Under the pieces are notes generated by a model that was given only the letters and a program-made list of their open reading frames with translations, had not been told where the DNA came from and searched no databases. Positions 2,874 through 47,530 of a stretch of DNA of 64,000 nt are shown here, one piece after another. A program made the translations under genes and the position numbers. The DNA lies in NCBI GenBank assembly GCA_002633005.1, contig NMRA01000826.1, forward strand, positions 66,978-130,977, given 5' to 3'. Every line of letters begins with the position of its first letter. Position 1 is the stretch's first letter. Origin of the DNA: Phoronis australis (Eukaryota > Animalia > Phoronida).

Positions 2874-3028
2874 GAAAAACACGCCAAACCTCCGACCAAG
2901 AAGTTCAGTGAAGCGTTTGACGATAAGAGGACTCACCTGTTTACACTCGTGTTATTTCCCGACAATAAGTTTGAGATCTATGTAGACCAGAACCTTGTTA
3001 ACTCTGGCAGTCTGTTGGCAGATTTCAG
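2874..3028 (+). CDS. CANX: Calnexin exon
   Basis: EKHAKPPTKKFSEAFDDKRTHLFTLVLFPDNKFEIYVDQNLVNSGSLLADF; phase 0-2. Confidence 0.95.
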
Positions 3029-3425
3029 GTAGGCAGTACATTTGTAGTTCATAACATGAGGCGCCTTGAAGGCAGTTGGTTGTCATAATTGGACACAACT
3101 TGCTTCTTGCCTAGTTATGAATTACAGGTTGTCTGAACATTGTGTGCACATTTCAAATCAAATGAACAACATTGTTTAATGACACAGGAATAAGATTATT
3201 GGTTTTTACGAGGTGACTAAAAGGAATTAAATCTTTCAACTAAATGTATCCTTTGAAAAATAATTTTCTGCATTTCGTCAACGTTTTTGAGTTTTTAGTA
3301 CCTGTTACTACACACAGAAAATTTCTTTTCTCAAAAACTGAAATATTTGTTTATCATTCCAGCACATACAGAATATGTGACAGGTGTCACACGTACTCTT
3401 GCACCAAGTTGTAAACATGCAGGTG

Positions 3426-3766
3426 ACCTGGTCACAGTGTACCTGGTCACACTGTACCTGGTCACAGTGTACCTGGTCACAGTGTACCTGGTCACAGTGT
3501 ACCTGGTCACTGTACCTGGTCACAGTGTACCTGGTCACTGTACCTGGTCACAGTGTCCTGGTCACAGTGTCCTGGTCACAGTGTACCTGGTCACTGTACC
3601 TGGTCACAGTGTACCTGGTCACAGTGTCCTGGTCACAGTGTCCTGGTCACAGTGTACCTGGTCACTGTACCTGGTCACAGTGTCCTGGTCACAGTGTCCT
3701 GGTCACAGTGTACCTGGTCACAGTGTCCTGGTCACAGTGTCCTGGTCACAGTGTACCTGGTCACAG
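3426..3766. repeat. 13-15-bp minisatellite (GTACCTGGTCACAGT variants)
   Basis: tandem array seen directly; explains the overlapping repetitive ORFs. Confidence 0.95.
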
Positions 3767-4073
3767 AGTGTGATCCATGACAATACTGCATTGGAAGTAC
3801 TTACACACTGTATTATAGAATATGTATCCTCAAACACTTCAAATACCTATTTTGATGTGACATTTCATAAATATAGACATTGTTGTGACAATTTAAACAA
3901 CAATGGATATCTGTTGCTTGGAGGTTTTGTGTTATGAAGACATTAGCTGCTAAGGTTGTTTAGGACCTTGATAAATGACTTCAACTCTTAAGTGAAATAT
4001 CGAAAAAAAAACTCTGCTTTGTTAACCATTGAAAGTACATATTTTCTAAAAGGAAAAGGATTGAGTATTGTAA

Positions 4074-5937: not shown

Positions 5938-6012
5938 CCCAGCTGTCAACCCTCCTGCCGAGATTGAAGATCCCAATGATAAGAAGCCTGTTGACTGGGA
6001 CGAGAGAGAGAA
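5938..6012 (+). CDS. CANX: Calnexin exon (P-domain start)
   Basis: [24 protein letters not shown]; phase 2-2. Confidence 0.95.
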
Positions 6013-6505: not shown

Positions 6506-6541
6506 AATCCCCGACTCTGATGCAAAAAAGCCCGAGGACTG
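6506..6541 (+). CDS. CANX: Calnexin 36-nt exon (P-domain)
   Basis: IPDSDAKKPEDW; ttgcag|...|gtaggt; phase 2-2. Confidence 0.93.
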
Positions 6542-7167
6542 GTAGGTTATGTTAGGCTTGCCTGCATTTTCCTTAATGATAGTCTTTCTCAGAAATAACT
6601 GGGAGTTACTACCTGTCCTGTACTCTACTGTCCTGGTGTATTTAGTGGGTACCTAAGCAGAGTTTGCCTTCCACTTCCAAACATGGACCCACCTTCCAAA
6701 AATATTGGGGTTCAATTTGGATATCTTGGTGTTTGGAAGCAGTCCAGAAATCATGACACTAGAAAAGAGTGATGTCCAAATTGCATTTGGCAAACCAGGT
6801 GGTGGGTCTTTCTGTGCAGGGCACTCAGTCACCTGAAGGATAGATGCTTTATCTTATGAAAGGAGGATTTTGTGGCATTTTTTTACTAAGGCTGTAATTT
6901 TCTTGATGTTTATTTACTGCACTGTTTTTTGTGACAATAATCCTTTATGCATTCACAAATAAGCAAGTATAAACTTGAAGGTAAATAATTAGAAGTGAAT
7001 AATTGTTAAATTCTATGCTGTGTTATATCCTGTGTCACACATACTCCTTAACATTCACTGCTGTATATATCCAGTGTCATAGCATCTATATCCTGTCACA
7101 GTGACTGTGCTGTGTCACAGTGTCTATATCCTGTGTCACACAGTCTCATACTCCTTAACATTCACTG

Positions 7168-7296
7168 CTGTATTGATCCTGTGTCGCAGTGTTGATATGC
7201 TGTGTCACTCTACACATACAGCTACATTAACTGTCCTTCTTCACAGCAGCTCGTGGCTAATGTTCGTGAGTCTGTGTTTGGACGGGGGAGACAAAT
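7168..7296 (+). ncRNA. Candidate intronic H/ACA snoRNA, copy 2
   Basis: gctgtat/atacagc stem, ACATTA 7224-7229, second hairpin, ACA at 7291. Confidence 0.35.
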
Positions 7297-8431: not shown

Positions 8432-8545
8432 GGACGAGACATTACCAGAAATGATTCCTGATGAGAGTGCTGTGAAGCCTGAAGGTTGGCTAGATGATGA
8501 GCCTGATTTGATCCCCGACCCGTCTTCAGAGAAACCATCTGATTG
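8432..8545 (+). CDS. CANX: Calnexin exon (P-domain)
   Basis: [38 protein letters not shown]; phase 2-2. Confidence 0.95.
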
Positions 8546-10294: not shown

Positions 10295-10335
10295 GGACGA
10301 TGACATGGACGGAGAGTGGGAACCAGCCAAGATCT
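10295..10335 (+). CDS. CANX: Calnexin exon (P-domain tip)
   Basis: DDDMDGEWEPAKI; phase 2-1; donor gtgagt. Confidence 0.95.
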
Positions 10336-10503
10336 GTGAGTATTTTATTGGTGTTCTTGGGTTTGCTATGTTTTGAAAATCAAATATTTGTATGTGTACT
10401 TGTTGGCAGCATGGATACTACTGATATGCTTCTGAAAGTCATGGAAATATTGAGGTATCTTGTATTAAAATACCTGTCCTTGATTTATGTGGCTCAAGAC
10501 TGA

Positions 10504-10632
10504 ATGCTATATGGTAATGCTATATGGTAATGATATATGGTAATGATATGTGGTGGTAATGCTATATGGTAATGCTATATGGTAATGATATGTGGTGGTA
10601 ATGCTATATGGTAATGCTATATGGTAATGCTA
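10504..10632. repeat. 13-bp tandem repeat (ATGCTATATGGTA) next to a calnexin acceptor
   Basis: seen directly. Confidence 0.9.
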
Positions 10633-10650
10633 TTTTGTACTGTGTTTCAG

Positions 10651-10841
10651 CCAACCCCAAGTGTGAAGCTGCTCCTGGGTGTGGCGAATGGACACGACCT
10701 CAGATTAAGAACCCCCTGTACAAGGGCAAGTGGCGTCCACCTATGATTGCCAATCCCAACTACAAGGGTACATGGAAACCAAAATTGATCGCCAACCCAG
10801 ACTTCTTCGAGGACAAGACACCATACAAAATGACTCCCTTT
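10651..10841 (+). CDS. CANX: Calnexin exon (P-domain type-2 repeats)
   Basis: [63 protein letters not shown]; phase 1-0. Confidence 0.96.
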
Positions 10842-11595
10842 GTAAGTAGTCCATTTTTAATACAAAACAAATTTTCCCTGTATTGTGTACTAGTCTGGTT
10901 ATTGACTTCCTCCAGCACACCTATCTTCTTTCGTTACAATCAGTAGCTATAGTTACTGGGTATCAGATTTTTACTTGTTACATTAGTTCTACTTATAGAA
11001 CCTTGTTAACACTCATTTTTCTGCATTCCTTGAGAATGAGGCCTGCTTAATTCTAAGTTAGAGAACTGTTTCAGTGGTTAAATGGAAGTGCATGTGAAGT
11101 CAGAGGCGACAACATTTGCTCATTTGCATATTGTCCATTAATTTTCAAATTAAATTGGCCAAAGTTTGACAGAGAACTTTGTCAGACTCTGCCAATCTTG
11201 CACGAACTTGTTGTTATAGTTATTTGGCAATTTACTCAAATCTGTCGTAATAAAATAGTGTTTTTGTTGAAATTTAGTCAGATATTAATGACAGAATATT
11301 TCGTGTAGCCACTAATTGTTATTTGTGAGTTGACCTGCAAAGTTGAGTAATTTTGACAATCTGCATGGAGTGACACCTGTTGAGATTTTGTGGAGATTTA
11401 GCGAGAATTGGAGTGGGTTGTATTGAAAACGAAATGGAGTCATGGTTTTGTGTATGAATTTAGACATTGTCCAGTGTACTTTGGCTCAATTGGTATTTTA
11501 TTTTTTAATGAATGTTACATAGCAGCCTAGATTTTATAGGATTTCAAAAATGAAAATCGTGAAAGTTATAGATGATTTATTTGCTCCCCTGTCAG

Positions 11596-11751
11596 GTGGC
11601 TATTGGTCTTGAACTGTGGTCCATGTCTGACAACATCCTCTTCGACAACTTCATCATCACTGATGACAAGGCAGTTGCAGACAGTTGGGCTGGTAAAACA
11701 TGGCTACTCAAGAATCGCTACGAGACGGCTAAGGCTGCATCCAGTGGCAAG
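11596..11751 (+). CDS. CANX: Calnexin exon
   Basis: VAIGLELWSMSDNILFDNFIITDDKAVADSWAGKTWLLKNRYETAKAASSGK; phase 0-0. Confidence 0.93.
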
Positions 11752-13256
11752 GTACATTTGACCTCGTAGTAACTGCTGTGTAACTTGTTTTGATCATGTA
11801 TTCAACAAGGTGGTCACAATTTAAATAAGAATTTCCTGCCCAGTGTCGCTGTGGTAGATCTAATGTCCCAGGCAGTGCACAGTTTGTGTGATGGATGTGA
11901 ATCCAGGCTTTGGTGAAATTGTACCTGGCTGATAGCACTGTCTCCAGCAGAAATTGTTTCATTCGAACTTGGACTGGTTCCGTTTTCATACGTGCACATG
12001 ACTTTGTATAAATATGTGTGCATATTGCTATCTTGACGTTCTACATATTGGTCGTAATTGACTATCACCCTGCAGTATCGAGATCCATTTTTAACTACAG
12101 TGAGGGGGGCAAGTTTATCGAACTTAATACTAAAATCAACAGCATGCACACAAGTTGTGTTACCATTTTCTTTGTTTTCAAATGTTAGCAATGCCATCCT
12201 CACTTAATGATGATCACGAAGACACTCACCAGGTGGTGCTAATGTGTGATGTATACACTGTAACAGTAAAGCATAACAGTTGTGACAGGTGTGCATGTTT
12301 TATGAGGAAAACAGTGAACCTTTCATGTAACACTTCACTAAATTAAATGCAATAAGTAACCAAGAAAGTTTATTTTTAAAAGTTGTTTTAATTTAACTGG
12401 CGTTAATTGAACTTGATGATTAATATATCACGAATTAGTATGAGCGCCTAACACAATGTGTGAAACTTATTTCAACTCAACTTCGGCATGTGTGAAGTGT
12501 GGGTCACCAAATAACAGTGGGCAGTGTCACTTTCGACCTGTCGCACTTCAGCTTTCTTTGTCAAGATTGCTCATGAGCCAAAATAAAAATTTCTTCAATT
12601 TTAAATACAAACCATTATCGTATACACCATTGGTATAGTATTGGTCAGTGAACACAAACCATTATCGTATACAACATTGGTATAGTATTTGTCAGTGAAT
12701 ACAAGTAGTTAAAGTAAACTTACCTAGCTGCAGCACTATCAGCATCAATGCTTGACCTCATTTCTCTTGTCATTCAGTAAACCATTCCTCCAGAATTCAG
12801 TGATTTTGTGTCATCAAAGTGCTTCCCAAGAACTAAACCTACGAGTTAAGTCCAAACTGCTTGAAGAATTATAAAGCCAGTCTTACACAAAACAGTTTTG
12901 TTCAGTGTTGGTTAGTGATGCTATTTTATTCCAATTCAAAAATGTTGAATAATTTGTTTGCAAGACCACGTATGGCCCATAGGGTTGACTTGTGTCATTC
13001 AACTTGTGTGCATGATTGTGATTGTGATTATGCTGCAAAATGGGACTGCTGCAAAGTCCTTATTTTTGTATACTTAGGTTCAACAATTTTTTGGTATTCA
13101 TTTAATTTTGGTCATAGAAATGAGTATTTTAAATTGAACCCTATGTCGACCTGAAACAAGCGCATGATTTCTCTGTCCATCAACTATCTTGTTGTCTAAT
13201 TTTATGTACTTTCATTGTCATATGAGTTGTTTGACAACAATCTGATTGTTTTCCAG

Positions 13257-13394
13257 CTGAATTTTTTCCAAAAACTGTATCACTGGACTAAAGAGAAGCC
13301 TTGGATGTGGGCTGTCATAATACTGGCTATTGTGCTTCCCACTCTGCTCTTTATTGCGTTTTGCTGCATCAAAACGCCACATGGTAGAATCAAG
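13257..13394 (+). CDS. CANX: Calnexin transmembrane exon A (alternative)
   Basis: LNFFQKLYHWTKEKPWMWAVIILAIVLPTLLFIAFCCIKTPHGRIK; PWxW-TM-FCC pattern; ttccag|...|gtagtg; phase 0-0. Confidence 0.85.
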
Positions 13395-13655
13395 GTAGTG
13401 CAGTGTTGTCATTATGCATGCTCATCCCGGCCAGGTGACCTTCATGTCATCTGGAGAAGCTGGTGCTGGATAAATCCCTGCAATTTTCAAGGATGTGGTT
13501 GACACAGCTTTATGAACAATTGAGTAGTGTTCTTAGTGTCAACCTGCCCCTGTGTGTACAAATATTCAACAGAATTGTGTGAAGGTCACCGGGCCATACA
13601 TGTCTTATTTCTGTTCACTTTGTTGTTGTTGCAAGCTAACGTTTGTCTTCATCAG

Positions 13656-13799
13656 GGTGGTATCAGTGGGTTCTTCAGCATGCTGCTAGACGCTGCCAAT
13701 GACCGCCCGTGGCTGTATGCCATCTACCTCGTCGTTGTACTCCTCCCTGTTGTCGTCCTCTCCATTTTTCTATGTCCGTCCAAGCCACAGATTCCAGAG
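13656..13799 (+). CDS. CANX: Calnexin transmembrane exon B (alternative)
   Basis: GGISGFFSMLLDAANDRPWLYAIYLVVVLLPVVVLSIFLCPSKPQIPE; branch-point-like gctaac at 13635; phase 0-0. Confidence 0.9.
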
Positions 13800-15077
13800 G
13801 TAGACAGTTTTCTGTTAACATGAATGTCTTTCAGCTATGCAGGATGTGATACGTGAGCTTTAGCCAAGTTTGAAGCAGTATGCAGTGTTGACTTACTCTA
13901 TGTGTTAGTCCTGCCTGATAGGTTTACAGTGACACTTAAACATGTACTTGCATGCTTCTAACTATGCTAATGTACAGCAGGAACTAAACGACAATGCTAT
14001 TTGAACAACTGTGCTAAATAAAGAGCAGTTGTATTCACTTGTAAATGTGAAAACAAAAAACTCTGCAAATAGGTGACCTTTGCACTTATGGGGCTCACAT
14101 AGCCCGCATCATGCAGTGTTATTCCCCAACACCACGTCGCGATACTTATTGGATACAGTTGTGTGATTTACAGCGGATCATTATCGACACAAAACTCATT
14201 CTTAAAAACATTTGGCAATTTTCAACCTACTTCATATTCTCATCATCGCTATATGTTGTGTGTCTAACTAATTTGACCGAGCAAACACAGAGATATGGAA
14301 TTAGTGTGCTAGTTCAACTTTAACTTGTTACCATGTTTATGTACAGCCCACATGTACAGTGTAGTAGAACTCCAGTTAGGGAAAAATTAATAACTTTGCC
14401 CTAGACCAGAGCTTGTACTAAATTTTAGAAATAGGCACTACTGACTGTCCCAAATTCAAGAGTCACCAGAAATACTTAAAAATTAACTGCTAAGTATGTT
14501 TTGTCGGACTGTCTTGATACAAAACCCTATGTCTGAAATTTGAGAAATGTAACGACTGCGACAATCGCCCATCTTCAGAATCAAGGAAATTCAATCTCTG
14601 CCGGAACATTGGTGTCCCAAATTTTAGAAACTTTCCCAAATTGGAAAATTTGCACCAGTAATCAGTATCGTCTGTTACTCCTCGTAATTACTAGTGGAAT
14701 TCTCCATCACAACTTTTGAGCGCAAACAGAATTCACGGTCATCGTTACCATCTTGGCGGGGAGCGACTGTTGAATTTTACTAGAGTTAAGATCTAATCAA
14801 GTGTAAACAAACATTGTGGCAGATACAGCAAGGTGCAAACAAAGAAATACGATGCATACTTAAGTTGATCACACATGGTCACACTGCTACATGCTTGAGT
14901 GACCAGTTGTGCTTCAAAATTGTATTGGGTGGCGTAGTTGAATATTAAGGTCTTCCTTTGGCTATGAAATGCACTGGCAGTTGTGTTAACATATGCATGT
15001 GTACATTATTCTTATGTGAATCTTGACGACAAACAATTCTATGCATGAAACTGTCATATAATCTAGGACTCCCTATC

Positions 15078-15500
15078 ATTCACTGCTGTATGTATCCTGT
15101 GTCACAGTGACTATATGCTTTGTCATAGTGACTGTATCCCATATCACAGTGTCTGTATCCTGTGTCACACAGTCCCATACTCCTTAACATTCACTGCTGT
15201 ATATATCCAGTGTCACAGTGTCTATACCTGTCACGGTGACTATGTGCTGTGTCACACAGTCCCATACTCCTTAACATTCACTGCTGTATATATCTAGTGT
15301 CACAGTGTCTATACCTGTCACAGTGACTATGTGCTGTGTCACAGTGACTATATCCTGTGTCACACAGTCCCATACTCCTTAACATTCACTGCTGTATATA
15401 TCCAGTGTCATAGCATCTATATCCTGTCACAATGACTATGTGCTGTGTCACAGTGTCTATATCCTGTGTCACACAGTCTCATACTCCTTAACATTCACTG
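15078..15500. repeat. Complex TGTCACAG-based minisatellite; shorter copy at ~7015-7170
   Basis: repeated tactccttaacattcactgctgtat and tgtgtcacag units. Confidence 0.85.
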
Positions 15501-15626
15501 CTGTATTGATCCTGTGTCGCAGTGTTGATATGCTGTGTCACTCTACACATACAGCTACATTAACTGTCCTTCTTCACAGCAGCTCGTGGCTAATGTTCGT
15601 GAGTCTGTGTTTGGACGGGGACAACA
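15501..15626 (+). ncRNA. Candidate intronic H/ACA snoRNA, copy 3
   Basis: same layout; ACATTA 15557-15562, ACA at 15621. Confidence 0.38.
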
Positions 15627-15911
15627 TATCCTTGTTAAGATAGTGGTTGTAAACTTAGTTGGATTACCATTATAATTTATTACAATATTCTGAATCTCGG
15701 TAACATTTTACAAGAACACCACGGTATGTTGTCTTGATCGTTTTAGCTATTGAGCTGAGCTGTGTAACCAATTGTATATTATTACACAATGTTAGGTTGC
15801 CTATTGCATGATGAACTCGCCACGAACTTATTGTCTAGACATCTTCTTGTCCTAATCTCCCTGGATATCATTATCTCGTGTTTCTTAACCAATGCACACA
15901 ATTTTTGTCAG

Positions 15912-16085
15912 GCTGAAGATGATGCAGGTGAACGAAAGAAGACTGATGAAGCAACGGCAGACGATGCAATAGACGAAGAGGAGGAGGAGCCTGAACAAGA
16001 AAGTGATGAGGTAGCAGCGGGGGCGGGTGATGCGCCGGAGGTGGAACAAACCAAGAAGAAAGGCAAGAGTGCCTTAGATGCAGAG
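15912..16085 (+). CDS. CANX: Calnexin exon (acidic cytosolic tail)
   Basis: AEDDAGERKKTDEATADDAIDEEEEE...; conserved KKTD; donor gtgagt. Confidence 0.92.
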
Positions 16086-16147
16086 GTGAGTTAAGTGTCA
16101 GGCAGTGGCTTTATAAAGAGATGAGTCATTGGGAGGGGTGGGTGGAT

Positions 16148-16370
16148 TGGTTTGTAGGGGAAGTGTGTAGGTTAAACGGACAGATGAGTTGCTGGGACAG
16201 GTTGGTTTGTAGGGGAAGTGTGTAGGTTAAACGGACAGATGAGTTGCTGGGACAGGTTGGTTTGTAGGGGAAGTGTGTAGGTTAAACGGACAGATGAGTT
16301 GCTGGGACAGGTTGGTTTGTAGGGGAAGTGTGTAGGTTAAACGGACAGATGAGTTGCTGGGACAGGTTGG
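16148..16370. repeat. ~54-bp tandem repeat x4, followed by a ~37-bp repeat x3 (16425-16535)
   Basis: ggtttgtaggggaagtgtgtaggttaaacggacagatgagttgctgggacaggtt repeated exactly. Confidence 0.92.
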
Positions 16371-16846
16371 GTGAAAGCGTGAGCAATTTGTGATTCGATG
16401 TTGTGCAAGGTCATAGCAGTGCTTTGTTGTATAACCTGCCGTGTGCACTACTTATTGTATTTGTTGTATAACCTGCTGTGTGCACTACTTACTGTATTTG
16501 TTGTATAACCTGACGTGTGCACTACTTATTGTATTATTGCTCACTTGTACCCATCTCCAATACTGATTTAAATACTGAAAGCGATGCCACCAAAAGTGTG
16601 CCATTGCACTTAATCAATGCAAACTGTTGGTCTAAACAACTCATTCCTTACTTATATAGATGAGATGTGATTTCTGAGTTAAGATTTGACATCTTGTTAT
16701 TCATGGAGATCATGCTGGGCGTATCAGATTACAAGCCAATATGTAGAGCCTGATCTCAAGTAATAACGAAATGTCATTTCTAAGGAGGTCTAAAATAACC
16801 TTCAATTTACTAAGGAACAATATGAGACCAATATCACAATGATAAG

Positions 16847-18297: not shown

Positions 18298-18390
18298 GAG
18301 GAAGAAGAGGAGAATGAAGGTGAAGGAGAGATTGACGAGGAGGTCACACGGAGGTCATCACCAAGGAAGAGGAAACAAAGGAAGGATTAG
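18298..18390 (+). CDS. CANX: Calnexin last coding exon
   Basis: EEEEENEGEGEIDEEVTRRSSPRKRKQRKD*, matching the calnexin SPR..RK.R(K/R)(D/E) C-terminus; AATAAA at 18993, 19810 and 20625 downstream. Confidence 0.92.
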   Translation, partial: EEEEENEGEGEIDEEVTRRSSPRKRKQRKD

Positions 18391-21011: not shown

Positions 21012-22114
21012 AACAAGAGCAACGCAGAGCGTTGAAATGCGCCCACAATTGCACCGCCAACGGTATCCTTCTAGGGTTGTTTATTGGTACCATAAAGTGG
21101 CCAGTAGAGGGCATATATGTAGTATGTTGTACTTAGCAAAATGGAAAGGCATGGTCATTGTCTCCTCAATAGGCTAGGGGCAAAATGTGAGTAATCTTCA
21201 TAATACAAGCACATCCTATACACCAGTTGCTTAAAGCACCACAGAAACATAGAATTAAAAACAAATTTACCAACATACAAGATTAGCACAGCATTAGAAT
21301 GCCAGAAACAAATTTCTACTTGGAACTTTTCCTTCACAGTCACGAAGTAACACAAAGTATACACCTGAAGACCTATGAAAATACAGAGGTCAATGTAAAA
21401 TNNNNNNNNNNNNNNNNNNNNNNNNNNNNNNNNNNNNNNNNNNNNNNNNNNNNNNNNNNNNNNNNNNNNNNNNNNNNNNNNNNNNNNNNNNNNNNNNNNN
21501 NNNNNNNNNNNNNNNNNNNNNNNNNNNNNNNNNNNNNNNNNNNNNNNNNNNNNNNNNNNNNNNNNNNNNNNNNNNNNNNNNNNNNNNNNNNNNNNNNNNN
21601 NNNNNNNNNNNNNNNNNNNNNNNNNNNNNNNNNNNNNNNNNNNNNNNNNNNNNNNNNNNNNNNNNNNNNNNNNNNNNNNNNNNNNNNNNNNNNNNNNNNN
21701 NNNNNNNNNNNNNNNNNNNNNNNNNNNNNNNNNNNNNNNNNNNNNNNNNNNNNNNNNNNNNNNNNNNNNNNNNNNNNNNNNNNNNNNNNNNNNNNNNNNN
21801 NNNNNNNGTCATCTCACTAATAGGTGCCAACATACCAACTTTCATGAAAATTCGTTCAGGACTTTTGAAGATACAAAGGTAAGCGTAAAAAACTAAAATT
21901 GCCACTAGGGGGCACACCGGTAGTCGGATCCGTCCGAAAGTTCGCACATGCAGTCCCATTCATGAATGGAACATATGTGCCAAATTTCATGAACGTATGT
22001 CAAAGGGTTTTGGAGATAGAGCAGCGGACGCCGACCGGACGGACGGACAAACGGACGGACGGACAGAGATGACGGCATAATGCGTCCACATATAAATATG
22101 TGGGCGCATAAAAA
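21012..22114 (-). mobile_element. DINE-1/HINE-like non-autonomous Helentron element (spans the N gap)
   Basis: on minus strand: T-run, ATGCGCCCA subTIR with partial inverted repeat, (GTCC)n, body, TGGGCGCAT subTIR, CAACGC-TCT-GCGTTG stem-loop, CTTGTT. Confidence 0.8.
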
Positions 22115-41426: not shown

Positions 41427-41898
41427 CTGCAATAAGATGATGAGATTGAATCGTAAGTCGTGTGATGTTGAGCTTCTTTTTAGTAGTCATTTTCTACATC
41501 ACCAGTAGGCACCAAAATAAACTCTTCATTAGTTAGAAAACATGGCCCATTCCAAGAAAACCAACTTAGCTATGACAAATCTTAAACTTCAGTCAATTCT
41601 AAGATAAAACCAGAATTTGTCTCAAGACCACTTCAAGAGGTCTTAAGTTTGACTTAATTTTTTTACTGAAGTTTTGTCTTAAGTTAAACCATATTACTGG
41701 ATGTGGAAGTTTCAAAGTTTGGAAGTTGAGAAATAATTTAGACTTAAATAAAAATGAACTTAAGTCAGTTTTTTGAACGGACTGAAAGTTTCTTAATTTC
41801 CTTTGACAATCAACCTGAACTTTAAAAAGGTAACCATTTGAATAATTCACCATTAATTTTTGCACCATACACATAATATTAAAGATATAATACATTAC

Positions 41899-42024
41899 AT
41901 CTCCTTCCTTCCGCTTTCTTTCATACATTTCGTTTTCAAGCTGTTCAAGCTCCCGCTCTGCTTTGTTTGCTCTTCTCTCTGCTTTTTCTAATTTCTGCTC
42001 AGACTGTTCCAAAGCCAACTTCAT
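41899..42024 (-). CDS. Nested gene exon (coiled coil)
   Basis: MKLALEQSEQKLEKAERRANKAERELEQLENEMYERKRKEGD; phase 0-0. Confidence 0.75.
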
Positions 42025-44097: not shown

Positions 44098-44589
44098 CTA
44101 AAACAATACCATCACTATTTGTGGGCAATGAACGCTTGTAACCTCCACCATTATAAATTCTTCCAAACTATTTAGTGTTAGCTAGTTGACACTGCAGAAA
44201 TAAAAGAAATTTATTTTGCCAGAGAAAAGTCAAAATTTTATAATTAAATTTAGATTTTCAAAAGCTATCTTATTCACTGTCAGCTGCAGCACTACCAAAA
44301 CACTGAAAACAACACATCTTTACTTCTTTACCATGATCGCGGACTTAAATACAAAGTCCACGCTAAAATTGACACAGCTGCTAATCAGGCTGTGTGAGAA
44401 CATTTTGGGCGAACATGCGTGGTATTGCACAATTTCAAAATTGCATATTAATGCATTTTAGTTGCATAGCAGTACTAACTTGTATTGAATGAAAAACACA
44501 ATTGTTCCAAAATGAGGGAAAAAATAAATTATCTCGGCCTTCCAAATTTTGCAAGCAAATTTGTTGGACTAGACTTATCAAAATGTCAC

Positions 44590-45086
44590 CTTTTCTATGC
44601 GGAGAATTTTTGCCAAGTTGGTCCTCAATTCCGATTTCAATTTCATTTCCATTCGTTCAGGAGATGAGTGCAGCTTGACAGCTTCTTTTCGGAAAAGTAT
44701 GACATAATCTTCAAAAGTCATTGGTTTTGATACAGTCGAAATAACATTGCTATCATTTCCCAGTGTCAAACACTGTTCTGTAGTGAGGCCCCAATATATG
44801 TTGATGGGCCATTCCTTGAAGATACTGTTCTCCTTGGCCAGATCCTTAAGTGCCAAGTGGGTATGGTTACCCCCTATAATTTGGACGGGTATTGAAGAAC
44901 TGATGATTTCTTCGTAAGAAGGTTTTTTTGAGACGTCAACGAGCCCCAACAGAGCTGTTGTTCTGGTTTCCGGACGCATCAAGAGAGACTCTTTCAAAGC
45001 TTTAACATGCTTTGCGTCAGCAGTACGGCACATGATGCCATTGTCTGGCTGTCTCATTTGAAGCACTGGGATCATGAGATAGTTAC
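44590..45086 (-). CDS. Nested gene, ParB/Sulfiredoxin-like domain exon
   Basis: 497-nt open exon: RTADAKHVKALKESL...VQIIGGNHTHLALKDL...INIYWGLTTEQCLTLGNDSN; follows the ParB N-terminal pattern (R, helix, strand, IIxGxH..A, V, helix ending N). Confidence 0.8.
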
Positions 45087-47530
45087 CTATAACAAAACAA
45101 TGTTAGACAATCACGTTACACTCAGTAAGCACTTCCGGGTATTGTTCATTTCAAGCAAATGACAAATCTTAATGTGCAACAAGCATTAAACATAAAAGTA
45201 TCAGAATTTCTACCCTAACAATAATTAGTTAACAAAAGTGACAGTTGCAGAACCGTTCCGCATGCAGAACCATTCTGCATGGGGAGCGATTTCCTAAACA
45301 GAATGGTTTTGAGGGATATTCGTTTTGCCTAATCAACTTAAAATGCATTCCATTCCCATGCCACTTGAAAGTATCAATGTGACATGGCTGTTGCGGAACC
45401 ATGCGGAATCTGAGTGACAAGATGAACAACACATCTATAAGAGGAAACACATTTCATACAGGTCATAACTGTGATGGCGTATCTAGCACATAACTATCCT
45501 AAGAAAAATTCTGTAATTAGTCAATAAGGCTCCGAGACAAACAGACAACCGCATCAAAACTTAGTGTGGCCCTAGCTCTGGGCTCATGTAGGAATTGCTT
45601 AAACTTTCGCCATAAAACTTGCTTAGCTATTTTTGTCCGCCTTCAAAAACCTTGAAAGTCTGTCTCCTAAACCTGTGATCTGGCATTTAGCTGTCAAGCA
45701 TAACATCCCGTCTGATAGGTCACAAAGTGTGCACTGTAAACTTGAAGTTATTCTAAACTTGGAGCACTCTAGAGACACATTGTTGTGCAGTTCTATCAGT
45801 CTGCGTACTACTCATGATGATGAGTTTTACCAGGACCAGTTGTTTTTGTAATCGCTTCTACTTAATCATTCCCACCTGAAAAAATTCAGTTTTGTCACCC
45901 AGACATTTTCTACTCTGACATCTTGCCCTGTGCTTGACATGGGCATCCAGTCATATTAAGTTATTAACCTCCAAAATAATCCCCCAACTTAATGGCTACA
46001 ATATTATGTCTGTGTAGGTTCTGGACTGTACTACAAGATAAATTGCCTGATCAGCATGTCTATGAGTGATGTCTATGTGGAATCAGCTTCATCCATCTGG
46101 TTTTGTTTATGCTCTGGTTTCAACTCACCATGTAGCAGATTGAAGGTGCCTGATGAAGTGGTTGTTTGCTAGAGTTGTTCACTGGTACTGACTTAAAATT
46201 GATAAACAGTGACTGCTATTTTAAGAATCTGTGCAGTTTAAGTTTCATGTTCCTGGGTCAGATAAGAGGTGTAGTAGTAATGGTTTGTTCAACTACAGCA
46301 CTTACATGATGAAAGCAGTCAGACAGATTGTGGCTGACAACTTGGTTACTTTGTTTTATATATCTGAGGTTACTGTAACTCAGATCTCATGACTGTTTAT
46401 AGTGTTGTCAGCTAATTCAATATTTATGTTCTAAAACTGGCTTGAAATGTTTATCTCAAACATGCTTTATCAATTAGTTGTCAAGGTTACAAACTTGAAA
46501 GCAGCCTTTTCAAACTGGTTGTAACTCCAGAACTAAGAACAGCTGGATATATAGGTAAGACTGAACAATGAACTTAATGTTGAAATTTGCTATATAATGA
46601 TTAGATTACATTTAACAAGGAATAATTAATTTATAAGTGTTCAGTCACATTAATTTTGTAGTGGAAATATCTTTCAATTCTGCGCAAAATTAATTACTGG
46701 TATGTTTTATTGCCATTACCAAAAGTACATACCCCCCCAACACAGTTGACCATTCCCTTACAGTAAAAGAGCAGATTTCAAGGGAATGACAGGCATGAAA
46801 TGGAACATTCACTAGCTATTTATAGCACTCAGAATCCAAGTGAGAAATGTCGTTTTGCAGTTCGACTATTAGAAGTGAGTGTTGAGTCGACACGAGAGTA
46901 GGTTTCCCGAAATTAATTCATTTTGTCAAGTTGTGAAAGCATTCGCCACTTTAACATATGTACTGCACTCTAACATTGCCAGTGGCGCTCACAATTGGCC
47001 AATGGCAAGCTGGCGAGTGGCTAGTGCAAGCCCAGGAAGGTGACAGAGTTCACACAATATTCCTTAGTTGTAGTCTACACCTTCATGCAGCAACATGAGA
47101 AGCTGTAGAAATGGCCAGGATTCAACCCTTTCATCGTTTTTTGAGAGTGAGGCCAACGTGTAAGGAATATTCCCTCAACTCTCACACGACATGAGGAGTT
47201 GTCACGAAGCGCAGGAAATATTCTCTGCTTGAAGATATTAAGCATAGTATTTGGAGAACTACCTGCTTGCAGTGATGGAATGTCCCGTCACAAAGAATAA
47301 TATTATGCATAAAAATCCTCAATTTTGCCTTATTTCTTTATCAAATTTCTATAATCTGCAGTCACACCCAAAAAGGTGCTGGAACAGATATTCCTTTTTT
47401 GAAATAGAAACAGTTGCCGCCGCCAGGCTACAGATACAAAAACTGTTGTTTTAAAGTGACATACACATTGTTTCATAATGTGACTTTATCATGCTACTCA
47501 TTCTGAGCAATGTACTCTACACTTACATAC

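Follow-up and report, generated by a model that had tools for sequence, protein, structure and literature searches.

Two alternatively spliced membrane-anchor exons in the calnexin gene of Phoronis australis and their counterparts in other invertebrates

Calnexin is a core chaperone of the endoplasmic reticulum (ER). The single anchor of the mammalian protein does two debated jobs, namely the binding of client helices and the carrying of palmitate, the latter bearing on location and lifetime. The calnexin gene of Phoronis australis contains two adjacent exons, A and B, that can each supply this membrane anchor, which raises the questions of how they are used, how old they are and what two anchors might be good for.

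Structure and splicing of the exon pair

The analysis covered a stretch of 64 kb (the window), in which the 3' part of the gene lies on the plus strand; the start of the gene is located upstream of it. Splicing was assessed in three stranded raw-read RNA runs of the same species (X1, X2, X3), with about 18-19% of each run sampled. A joint was listed only from 3 reads at 2 starts, and rarer events escape listing. In a fourth RNA set (X4, contigs), exons A and B are outside the coverage. The calnexin features of the window are as follows, with residue positions counted from the proline of the transmembrane (TM) helix.

520-600, 1879-1995, 2874-3028, 5938-6012, 6506-6541, 8432-8545, 10295-10335 and 10651-10841, plus strand: eight exons that encode the lumenal part with its lectin and P domains, with an open joined frame
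11596-11751, plus strand: constitutive exon directly upstream of the A/B pair, encoding the end of the lumenal domain and ending in phase 0; the joint 10841-11596 is seen in 104/57/41 reads (X1/X2/X3), and 11751 is joined to A or B
13257-13394, plus strand: alternative anchor exon A, with a lumenal helix, a TM helix with central proline, Cys-Cys at +8/+9 and no Tyr at -7; minor form (scan, junction reads, tree)
13395-13655, plus strand: A-B intron of 261 nt, in which a branch-point-like CTAAC precedes the B acceptor by 19 nt; retained to some extent in two runs (sequence, read depth)
13656-13799, plus strand: alternative anchor exon B, with Tyr -7, Ser +5 and only one Cys, located at +9 directly before Pro; major form (scan, junction reads, class B clade)
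15912-16085, plus strand: constitutive exon downstream of the pair, in which the acidic cytosolic tail begins, phase 0 (joints from A and from B, translation)
18298-18390, plus strand: last coding exon, with acidic tail, basic C-terminus and stop codon (from sequence; its joint is outside the read coverage)

The calreticulin-family domain PF00262 matches 10653-10841 (Pfam, E 1e-27), and the only read-seen joints among the eight lumenal exons and the next one are 10335/10651 and 10841/11596. Translation of the last two exons predicts an acidic cytosolic tail that ends in a basic signal of the ER-retention type.

With 138 nt, exon A has 46 codons; exon B, with 144 nt, has 48. Their ends are AG/GT, their phase is 0-0 and their frames are open, and each encodes one hydrophobic helix with a best 19-residue Kyte-Doolittle mean of 3.05 (A) or 2.98 (B). 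With either exon, the lumenal domain is followed by a single TM helix that has a central proline, and the two share Pro-Trp-(Met/Leu)-(Trp/Tyr) and a mid-helix Leu-Pro; the helix ends in Phe-Cys-Cys in A and in Phe-Leu-Cys-Pro in B. Their global BLOSUM62 score is 65 versus -3 +/- 7.5 for shuffled sequences, none of 2000 shuffles reaching 65, and their identity is 25% over 40 aligned positions. The claim of the first-pass annotation, which had described two intact and highly diverged phase 0-0 anchor exons, is thereby borne out. A and B lie next to each other, are homologous and have similar lengths and the same phase, as expected from a tandem duplication. A scan of the whole interval 11753-15912 for phase-0 hydrophobic exons returned B, eight variants of A and two weak intronic candidates, and no other convincing one.

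Several sequence features surround the pair. Intronic tandem repeats are located at 3411-3782 (unit about 13-15 nt), 10490-10667 (13-16 nt) and 16092-16421 (55 nt). A segment of 191 nt that belongs to a family of tandem units of about 109 nt is 98% identical between two calnexin introns (7106-7296 and 15439-15629), evidently through a recent copying or conversion event from one intron to another. Within the intron that follows exon B, a dispersed repeat (13936-14300) draws many diverged reads of either strand in every run, which is indicative of a multi-copy, widely transcribed element. At 15967 and 15977 in the tail exon all reads differ from the window, one difference changing Ala to Val and the other being silent; these are allelic differences between individuals. 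Downstream of the calnexin gene, an assembly gap (N run) occupies 21402-21808. Two open frames lie on the minus strand: the one at 41599-42024 starts with a coiled-coil-like stretch and is probably an exon of a neighbouring minus-strand gene, and the one at 44578-45102 (174 codons) has no Pfam match at E 0.1. The latter contains a Gly-Gly-Asn-His motif, which we take to recall ParB/Srx-like domains.

The junction reads (X1/X2/X3) document that both exons are used. The upstream exon is joined to B in 53/33/19 reads and to A in 4/0/0 listed reads, and the downstream exon is reached from B in 98/51/20 reads and from A in 5/8/0 listed reads. Both flanking joints of B are thus seen in three of three runs, the upstream joint of A in one and its downstream joint in two. 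Exon A accounts for 5 of the 103 downstream junctions in X1 and for 8 of the 59 in X2, and it falls below the listing threshold in X3; the difference between X1 and X2 is not significant (Fisher p 0.07). Read support for exon A is thin: the upstream joint has 4-5 reads in one run, the downstream joint 5-9 reads in two. In X2, coverage of A declines to a depth of 0.4 at the 5' end of the exon, which explains why the upstream-to-A joint is unseen there. The joint from A to B is listed in none of the three runs (169, 117 and 49 reads at the locus in one count; 3-read threshold), and neither is a joint that skips both exons (3-read, 2-start threshold). A or B is spliced in one at a time, with B as the major form and A at about 5-14% where detected.

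The first-pass annotation had made its proposal of interchangeable anchors depend on exon A being spliced in at all. This is the case, since A junction reads occur in two of the three runs and A and B are each joined to the flanking exons, with B dominant. The annotation missed that B predominates in these samples, rather than the exon with the di-cysteine. It had furthermore pointed out that inclusion of both exons would flip the tail into the lumen and that skipping of both would give a soluble protein. Both products indeed stay in frame, but neither joint is listed in the reads analyzed here. Spliced models with A, B, both or neither run to the same stop with 456, 458, 504 and 410 residues in their in-window part, respectively, so that the reading frame does not enforce the exclusion of A by B. 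The A-B intron itself has a depth of 2-6 in X1, about 1-2 in X3 and near 0 in X2, and the 140 nt from 13100 to 13239 have none; the coverage of the intron next to this empty interval indicates that some molecules retain it. Reading from A into the A-B intron encounters a stop after 35 codons.

Distribution and age of the two anchor classes

Isoform models that differ by exactly this anchor exon are present in RefSeq/GenBank for molluscs, nemerteans, Daphnia pulex and Nilaparvata lugens (e.g. models X1/X2 of Lineus, X1/X2 of Haliotis and X1-X6 of Ostrea). With a related calnexin's anchor region as query, a protein search gave 193 proteins, the best 120 of which were considered. Two different anchor exons were found, among the matches listed, in 11 of 12 named mollusc and nemertean clusters (Ostrea, Mizuhopecten, Dreissena, Mya, Gigantopelta, Littorina, Haliotis, Physella, Octopus, Lineus and Tubulanus), a rate that is biased because these clusters were picked for names that mention isoforms. 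The Argonauta cluster has one anchor only, and a second anchor was found in none of the five unnamed transcript clusters examined. Two Ostrea RefSeq models join both exons in the order A then B; the same order is seen in the tandem models P0105, P0221 and P0296, and P0296 likewise joins the two. The Octopus models P0231 and P0233 terminate in a second anchor that is diverged and has no juxtamembrane cysteines; the acidic tail is missing from these models. In Ridgeia and a similar record (P0115, P0343), exon A is followed by a short second hydrophobic segment that lacks the helix proline and is perhaps a degenerate B.

Two further candidates were discarded: the isoforms of Branchiostoma differ outside the anchor, which is shared by 12 of 12 members, and the members of the Orbicella cluster that reach the anchor all share a single one. 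A word-based protein search with exon A alone succeeded for 0 of 6 candidates; a HMMER search with this exon gave 53 matches, mostly calnexin anchors. All 55 matches of a calnexin protein search carry PF00262. A spider protein labelled toxin in UniRef (P0011) is a calnexin to judge from its domain and sequence and was apparently misnamed.

A scan of metagenome contigs provided 68 loci, and seven of them carry A then B as separate phase-0 exons, with A-B introns of 41, about 62, 70, 73, 107-128, 480 and 493 nt. Among the single-hit loci that span both flanking exons, a B-type exon was found in 0 of 12 (24 single-hit loci examined; several near-copies). Exon A of these 12 loci is closest to that of Helobdella, so that B was likely lost in that worm group, and exon B appears to be dispensable in at least one group of worms. 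Exon A, whose disruption in close relatives the first-pass annotation had considered, is intact in relatives, and the breadth of A/B conservation went beyond what this annotation had noticed.

The A-B introns are also of interest for the question of how double inclusion is avoided. Their length is 261 nt in Phoronis australis, 41-76 nt in four loci and 107-493 nt in three. The short introns of the four loci would sterically hinder double inclusion. The 261-nt intron of Phoronis australis would need another control; steric exclusion was rejected for this species, in which the A donor and the branch-point-like CTAAC are 242 nt apart. No long RNA pairing of the exons with the flanking introns was found, the complements being of chance length only (10-12 nt). 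The A-B intron of locus L056 (3654-3694) has only 41 (or 47) nt and is short enough to block A-B joining.

Across the 11 named species, the identity is 65% among A exons and 58% among B exons, versus 38% between A and B of one species. In trees calculated from 40 columns that were aligned on the helix proline, window A groups with the class A exons and window B falls within the class B clade. The split of the two classes has a support of 98/93 on 32 rows (23 rows, among them Octopus B and the two alternative exons of arthropods, left out) and of 99/94 in the later tree of 55 rows with metagenome loci (without Octopus B, L063 and the alternative exons of arthropods). AU tests of groups that were named after the first tree was seen reject, on 32 rows, clades of window A+B (p 0.008), nemertean A+B (p 0.002) and mollusc A+B (p 0.038); the window A+B clade is not rejected on the first 55-row set (p 0.24). 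Window A represents a long branch (1.1 versus a median of 0.14). In the lumenal-domain tree, the window groups weakly (SH-aLRT 87) with Helobdella, Ridgeia and others, outside the mollusc group, a position that probably marks an annelid-like lophotrochozoan. In two informative pairs of metagenome loci from relatives, dN/dS is about 0.03 and 0.06 for exon A, and for exon B it is about 0.25 and 0.12; of the nine pairs, six are synonymous-saturated or nearly so and one is too close to inform. Both exons are, to judge from these values, under purifying selection in relatives.

The early proposal of an old duplication with both copies still intact is thus supported by the shared classes, the order A then B and the class split (99/94). 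The suggested calculation of dN/dS per exon, carried out on the loci of relatives, gave ratios well under 1 for A and B, and searches among other invertebrates found A and B in molluscs, nemerteans and worm loci. We are highly confident of the structure, the splicing, the shared classes, the shared order and the purifying selection in relatives. A single duplication before the mollusc/nemertean/annelid split is likely, as the simplest reading of the sequences; this split of molluscs, ribbon worms and annelids dates to the Cambrian or earlier. Independent duplications in each phylum with convergent sequences would have a parallel in the mrp-1 exon pairs, which have been reported as independent in several phyla (PMC7434440), and would accord with the small number of columns (only 40) and the AU result on the larger set (p 0.24). 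We nevertheless regard them as very improbable within lophotrochozoans, where the identity within classes (about 65% and 58%) stands against 38% within species, the pairs share order and phase, and groupings by phylum are rejected on 32 rows.

The situation is different for arthropods versus lophotrochozoans, which may share the duplication or have acquired it independently. Both named arthropod clusters, i.e. those of Daphnia pulex and the planthopper Nilaparvata lugens, contain two isoforms that differ in the anchor exon. The alternative exons form a long clade of their own (99/95), keep Tyr -7 and lack a cysteine at +7 to +9. They fit equally with class B or with the arthropod main exons (AU p 0.59 and 0.58 for the two placements), so that one protostome origin and two independent origins are both compatible with the data. 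The idea that A represents an arthropod-type and B a mollusc-type anchor was dropped once the mollusc A/B pairs appeared.

Residue differences and proposed functions

The two classes are distinguished by Tyr -7 (21/22 B, 0/28 A), Ser +5 (20/22 B, 0/28 A), Pro +10 (20/21 B, 0/28 A) and adjacent Cys-Cys at +8/+9 (6/21 B, 27/28 A), counts that are partly circular and describe the classes rather than test them independently, because most RefSeq exons were classed by similarity and the rows are related. The class-specific tyrosine, serine and proline had escaped the first-pass annotation. Among single or main anchors of other animals used as outgroups, Tyr -7 is present in 12 of 14 and Cys-Cys in 9 of 14. 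The coral anchor has no Tyr -7, and the ancestral state is accordingly deduced from bilaterians only.

The human anchor provides the functional reference for these positions. Its Tyr -7, Thr -4 and Leu -1 constitute the client-binding motif YxxTxxL, Cys-Cys is located at +8/+9, and joint mutation of Tyr and Thr has been reported to reduce the binding of membrane clients (PMC9753464). The motif is incomplete in B (Tyr in 21/22, Thr in 0/22), and A lacks both residues (0/28). As Thr is also absent from 13 of 14 outgroup anchors, only the tyrosine of the human motif is shared, and B matches it in part. For palmitoylation, both cysteines of human calnexin are described as required for a stable modification; single-cysteine mutants have been modelled as >80% unpalmitoylated, and the modelled half-lives are 5 h vs 46 h, with stable palmitoylation needing two sites (PMC4765739). 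Palmitoylation has further been tied to the location of calnexin at the translocon and at ER-mitochondria contacts, and the proline kink to translocon binding (PMC9913998).

We favor, with moderate confidence, the reading that the two tandem anchor exons have one early-lophotrochozoan origin and provide, via alternative splicing, two anchors with different binding surfaces in the membrane. Mutually exclusive splicing couples the lectin domain and the tail to one or the other of the conserved anchors. The ancestral single anchor would have carried a tyrosine seven residues before the helix proline as well as Cys-Cys at +8/+9. Exon A would have kept Cys-Cys and lost the tyrosine; exon B would have kept the tyrosine, gained Ser +5 and Pro +10 (a proline cap) and often lost one cysteine. 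If human calnexin is a guide, the likely function of the swap would be the choice of different intramembrane partners. By the same analogy, B would be the better binder of client TM helices, or would engage TM partners differently, and A would be a reliably double-palmitoylated, long-lived anchor tied to the translocon or to ER-mitochondria contacts, with cells setting the A/B ratio by splicing. Granted the facts of the exon pair, we lean slightly towards this division of labor. A more far-reaching version appears rather unlikely to us: a duplication that occurred once, in the protostome ancestor, and persisted in molluscs, worms and arthropods would have split the jobs of the anchor between a tyrosine-bearing, poorly palmitoylated client gripper and a di-palmitoylated anchor for the translocon or mitochondrial contacts. 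If it were true, splicing would do in invertebrates what the reversible palmitoylation of a single anchor does in mammals.

The first-pass annotation had proposed that the isoforms differ in palmitoylation. As an explanation of the pair as a whole, a double-palmitoylated anchor would be swapped for a poorly palmitoylated one, with a change in stability and ER subdomain. The skewed distribution of Cys-Cys (27/28 A vs 6/21 B), the proline after the last cysteine in 20 of 21 B exons, the absence of cysteines at +7 to +9 from the second exon of Octopus and from both arthropod alternative exons, and the two-site requirement with its half-lives in the human protein (PMC4765739) are all in line with such a switch. 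However, 14 of the 21 B exons retain two cysteines within +7 to +9, in six cases adjacent ones, including those of four worm loci and Tubulanus, and the A exon of Physella has only one. Since several B exons keep Cys-Cys, the switch cannot be a general rule across species. In Phoronis australis, where B keeps only the second cysteine, its sequence suggests that the switch may well hold, but here B is the major form, and most calnexin would be poorly palmitoylated if human kinetics applied. We therefore consider a palmitoylation switch doubtful as the general explanation; it and the two binding surfaces are not mutually exclusive.

Less probable still, and in our view quite unlikely, is a near-neutral redundancy in which both exons are adequate anchors, any included exon having to span the membrane, and A is a decaying minor exon in Phoronis australis. 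The minor share and fast evolution of A in this lineage (branch 1.1 vs median 0.14) would fit, as would the condition of B, which one worm group lacks and which is degenerate in Octopus and perhaps in Ridgeia. It is at odds with the persistence of class-specific residues across phyla, with dN/dS well under 1 for both exons in relatives and with window A, which keeps its splice sites, frame, proline and Cys-Cys. The second exon might also serve mainly for unproductive or topology-flipping splicing, intron-retained or double-anchor transcripts tuning the calnexin level. The depth of the A-B intron in X1, which about equals that of exon A, together with the stop 35 codons in, the two Ostrea RefSeq models with both exons and the Octopus models ending in the second exon point in this direction, but clean A-to-downstream junctions in two runs, the lack of a listed A-to-B joint and the conservation of both exons at the protein level render it barely credible.

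Comparison with known systems

The calnexin isoforms of molluscs and nemerteans in the databases belong to the same two classes as the window and are automatic models without a stated meaning; compared with them, B is the major form and A is diverged in Phoronis australis. Listings and abstract openings contained no published description of calnexin anchor isoforms, the terms "splic" and "isoform" have 0 matches in a 2023 calnexin review (PMC9913998), and calnexin has 0 matches in the main text of an insect exon survey (PMC3303723); supplementary tables of splicing surveys may list the event, and the Drosophila exon catalogue could include the fly gene. Calnexin isoforms as database models, anchor-swapping exons and invertebrate-wide housekeeping exon pairs are hence already known, and the A/B switch of calnexin is apparently undescribed.

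Exon 17 of Drosophila Dscam1 likewise consists of mutually exclusive exons for the single TM segment of a type I protein (PMC3364881). Dscam1 differs in being a cell-surface recognition receptor of pancrustaceans and not an ER chaperone. The choice of its exon 17 governs dendrite-versus-axon sorting. SLMAP also has two alternatively spliced anchors, TA1 and TA2, which set the targeting to the ER versus ER and mitochondria (PMC2712456). These are terminal tail anchors that differ in hydrophobicity, whereas the calnexin exons are internal, about equally hydrophobic and distinguished by polar residues and cysteines. Closest in distribution are exons a and e of coq-2 in helminths, annelids and molluscs, a mutually exclusive pair in a housekeeping gene that occurs in several invertebrate phyla and is absent from mammals (PMC7434440). 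The coq-2 pair remodels the core of an enzyme with proven function, whereas the calnexin pair swaps an anchor and its function is one that we infer.

Human calnexin shows the same register of tyrosine, proline and cysteines (Cys502/Cys503), and its one anchor carries both features. Two natural anchors that have existed side by side since the mollusc/ribbon-worm/annelid split would allow a ready comparison of which residues serve which job, feasible in cell lines or, via the arthropod pair, in genetic models. With calnexin, a housekeeping chaperone joins the short list of ancient anchor-swapping splice events, one in which B was probably lost in one worm group and the dominance is reversed in Phoronis australis.
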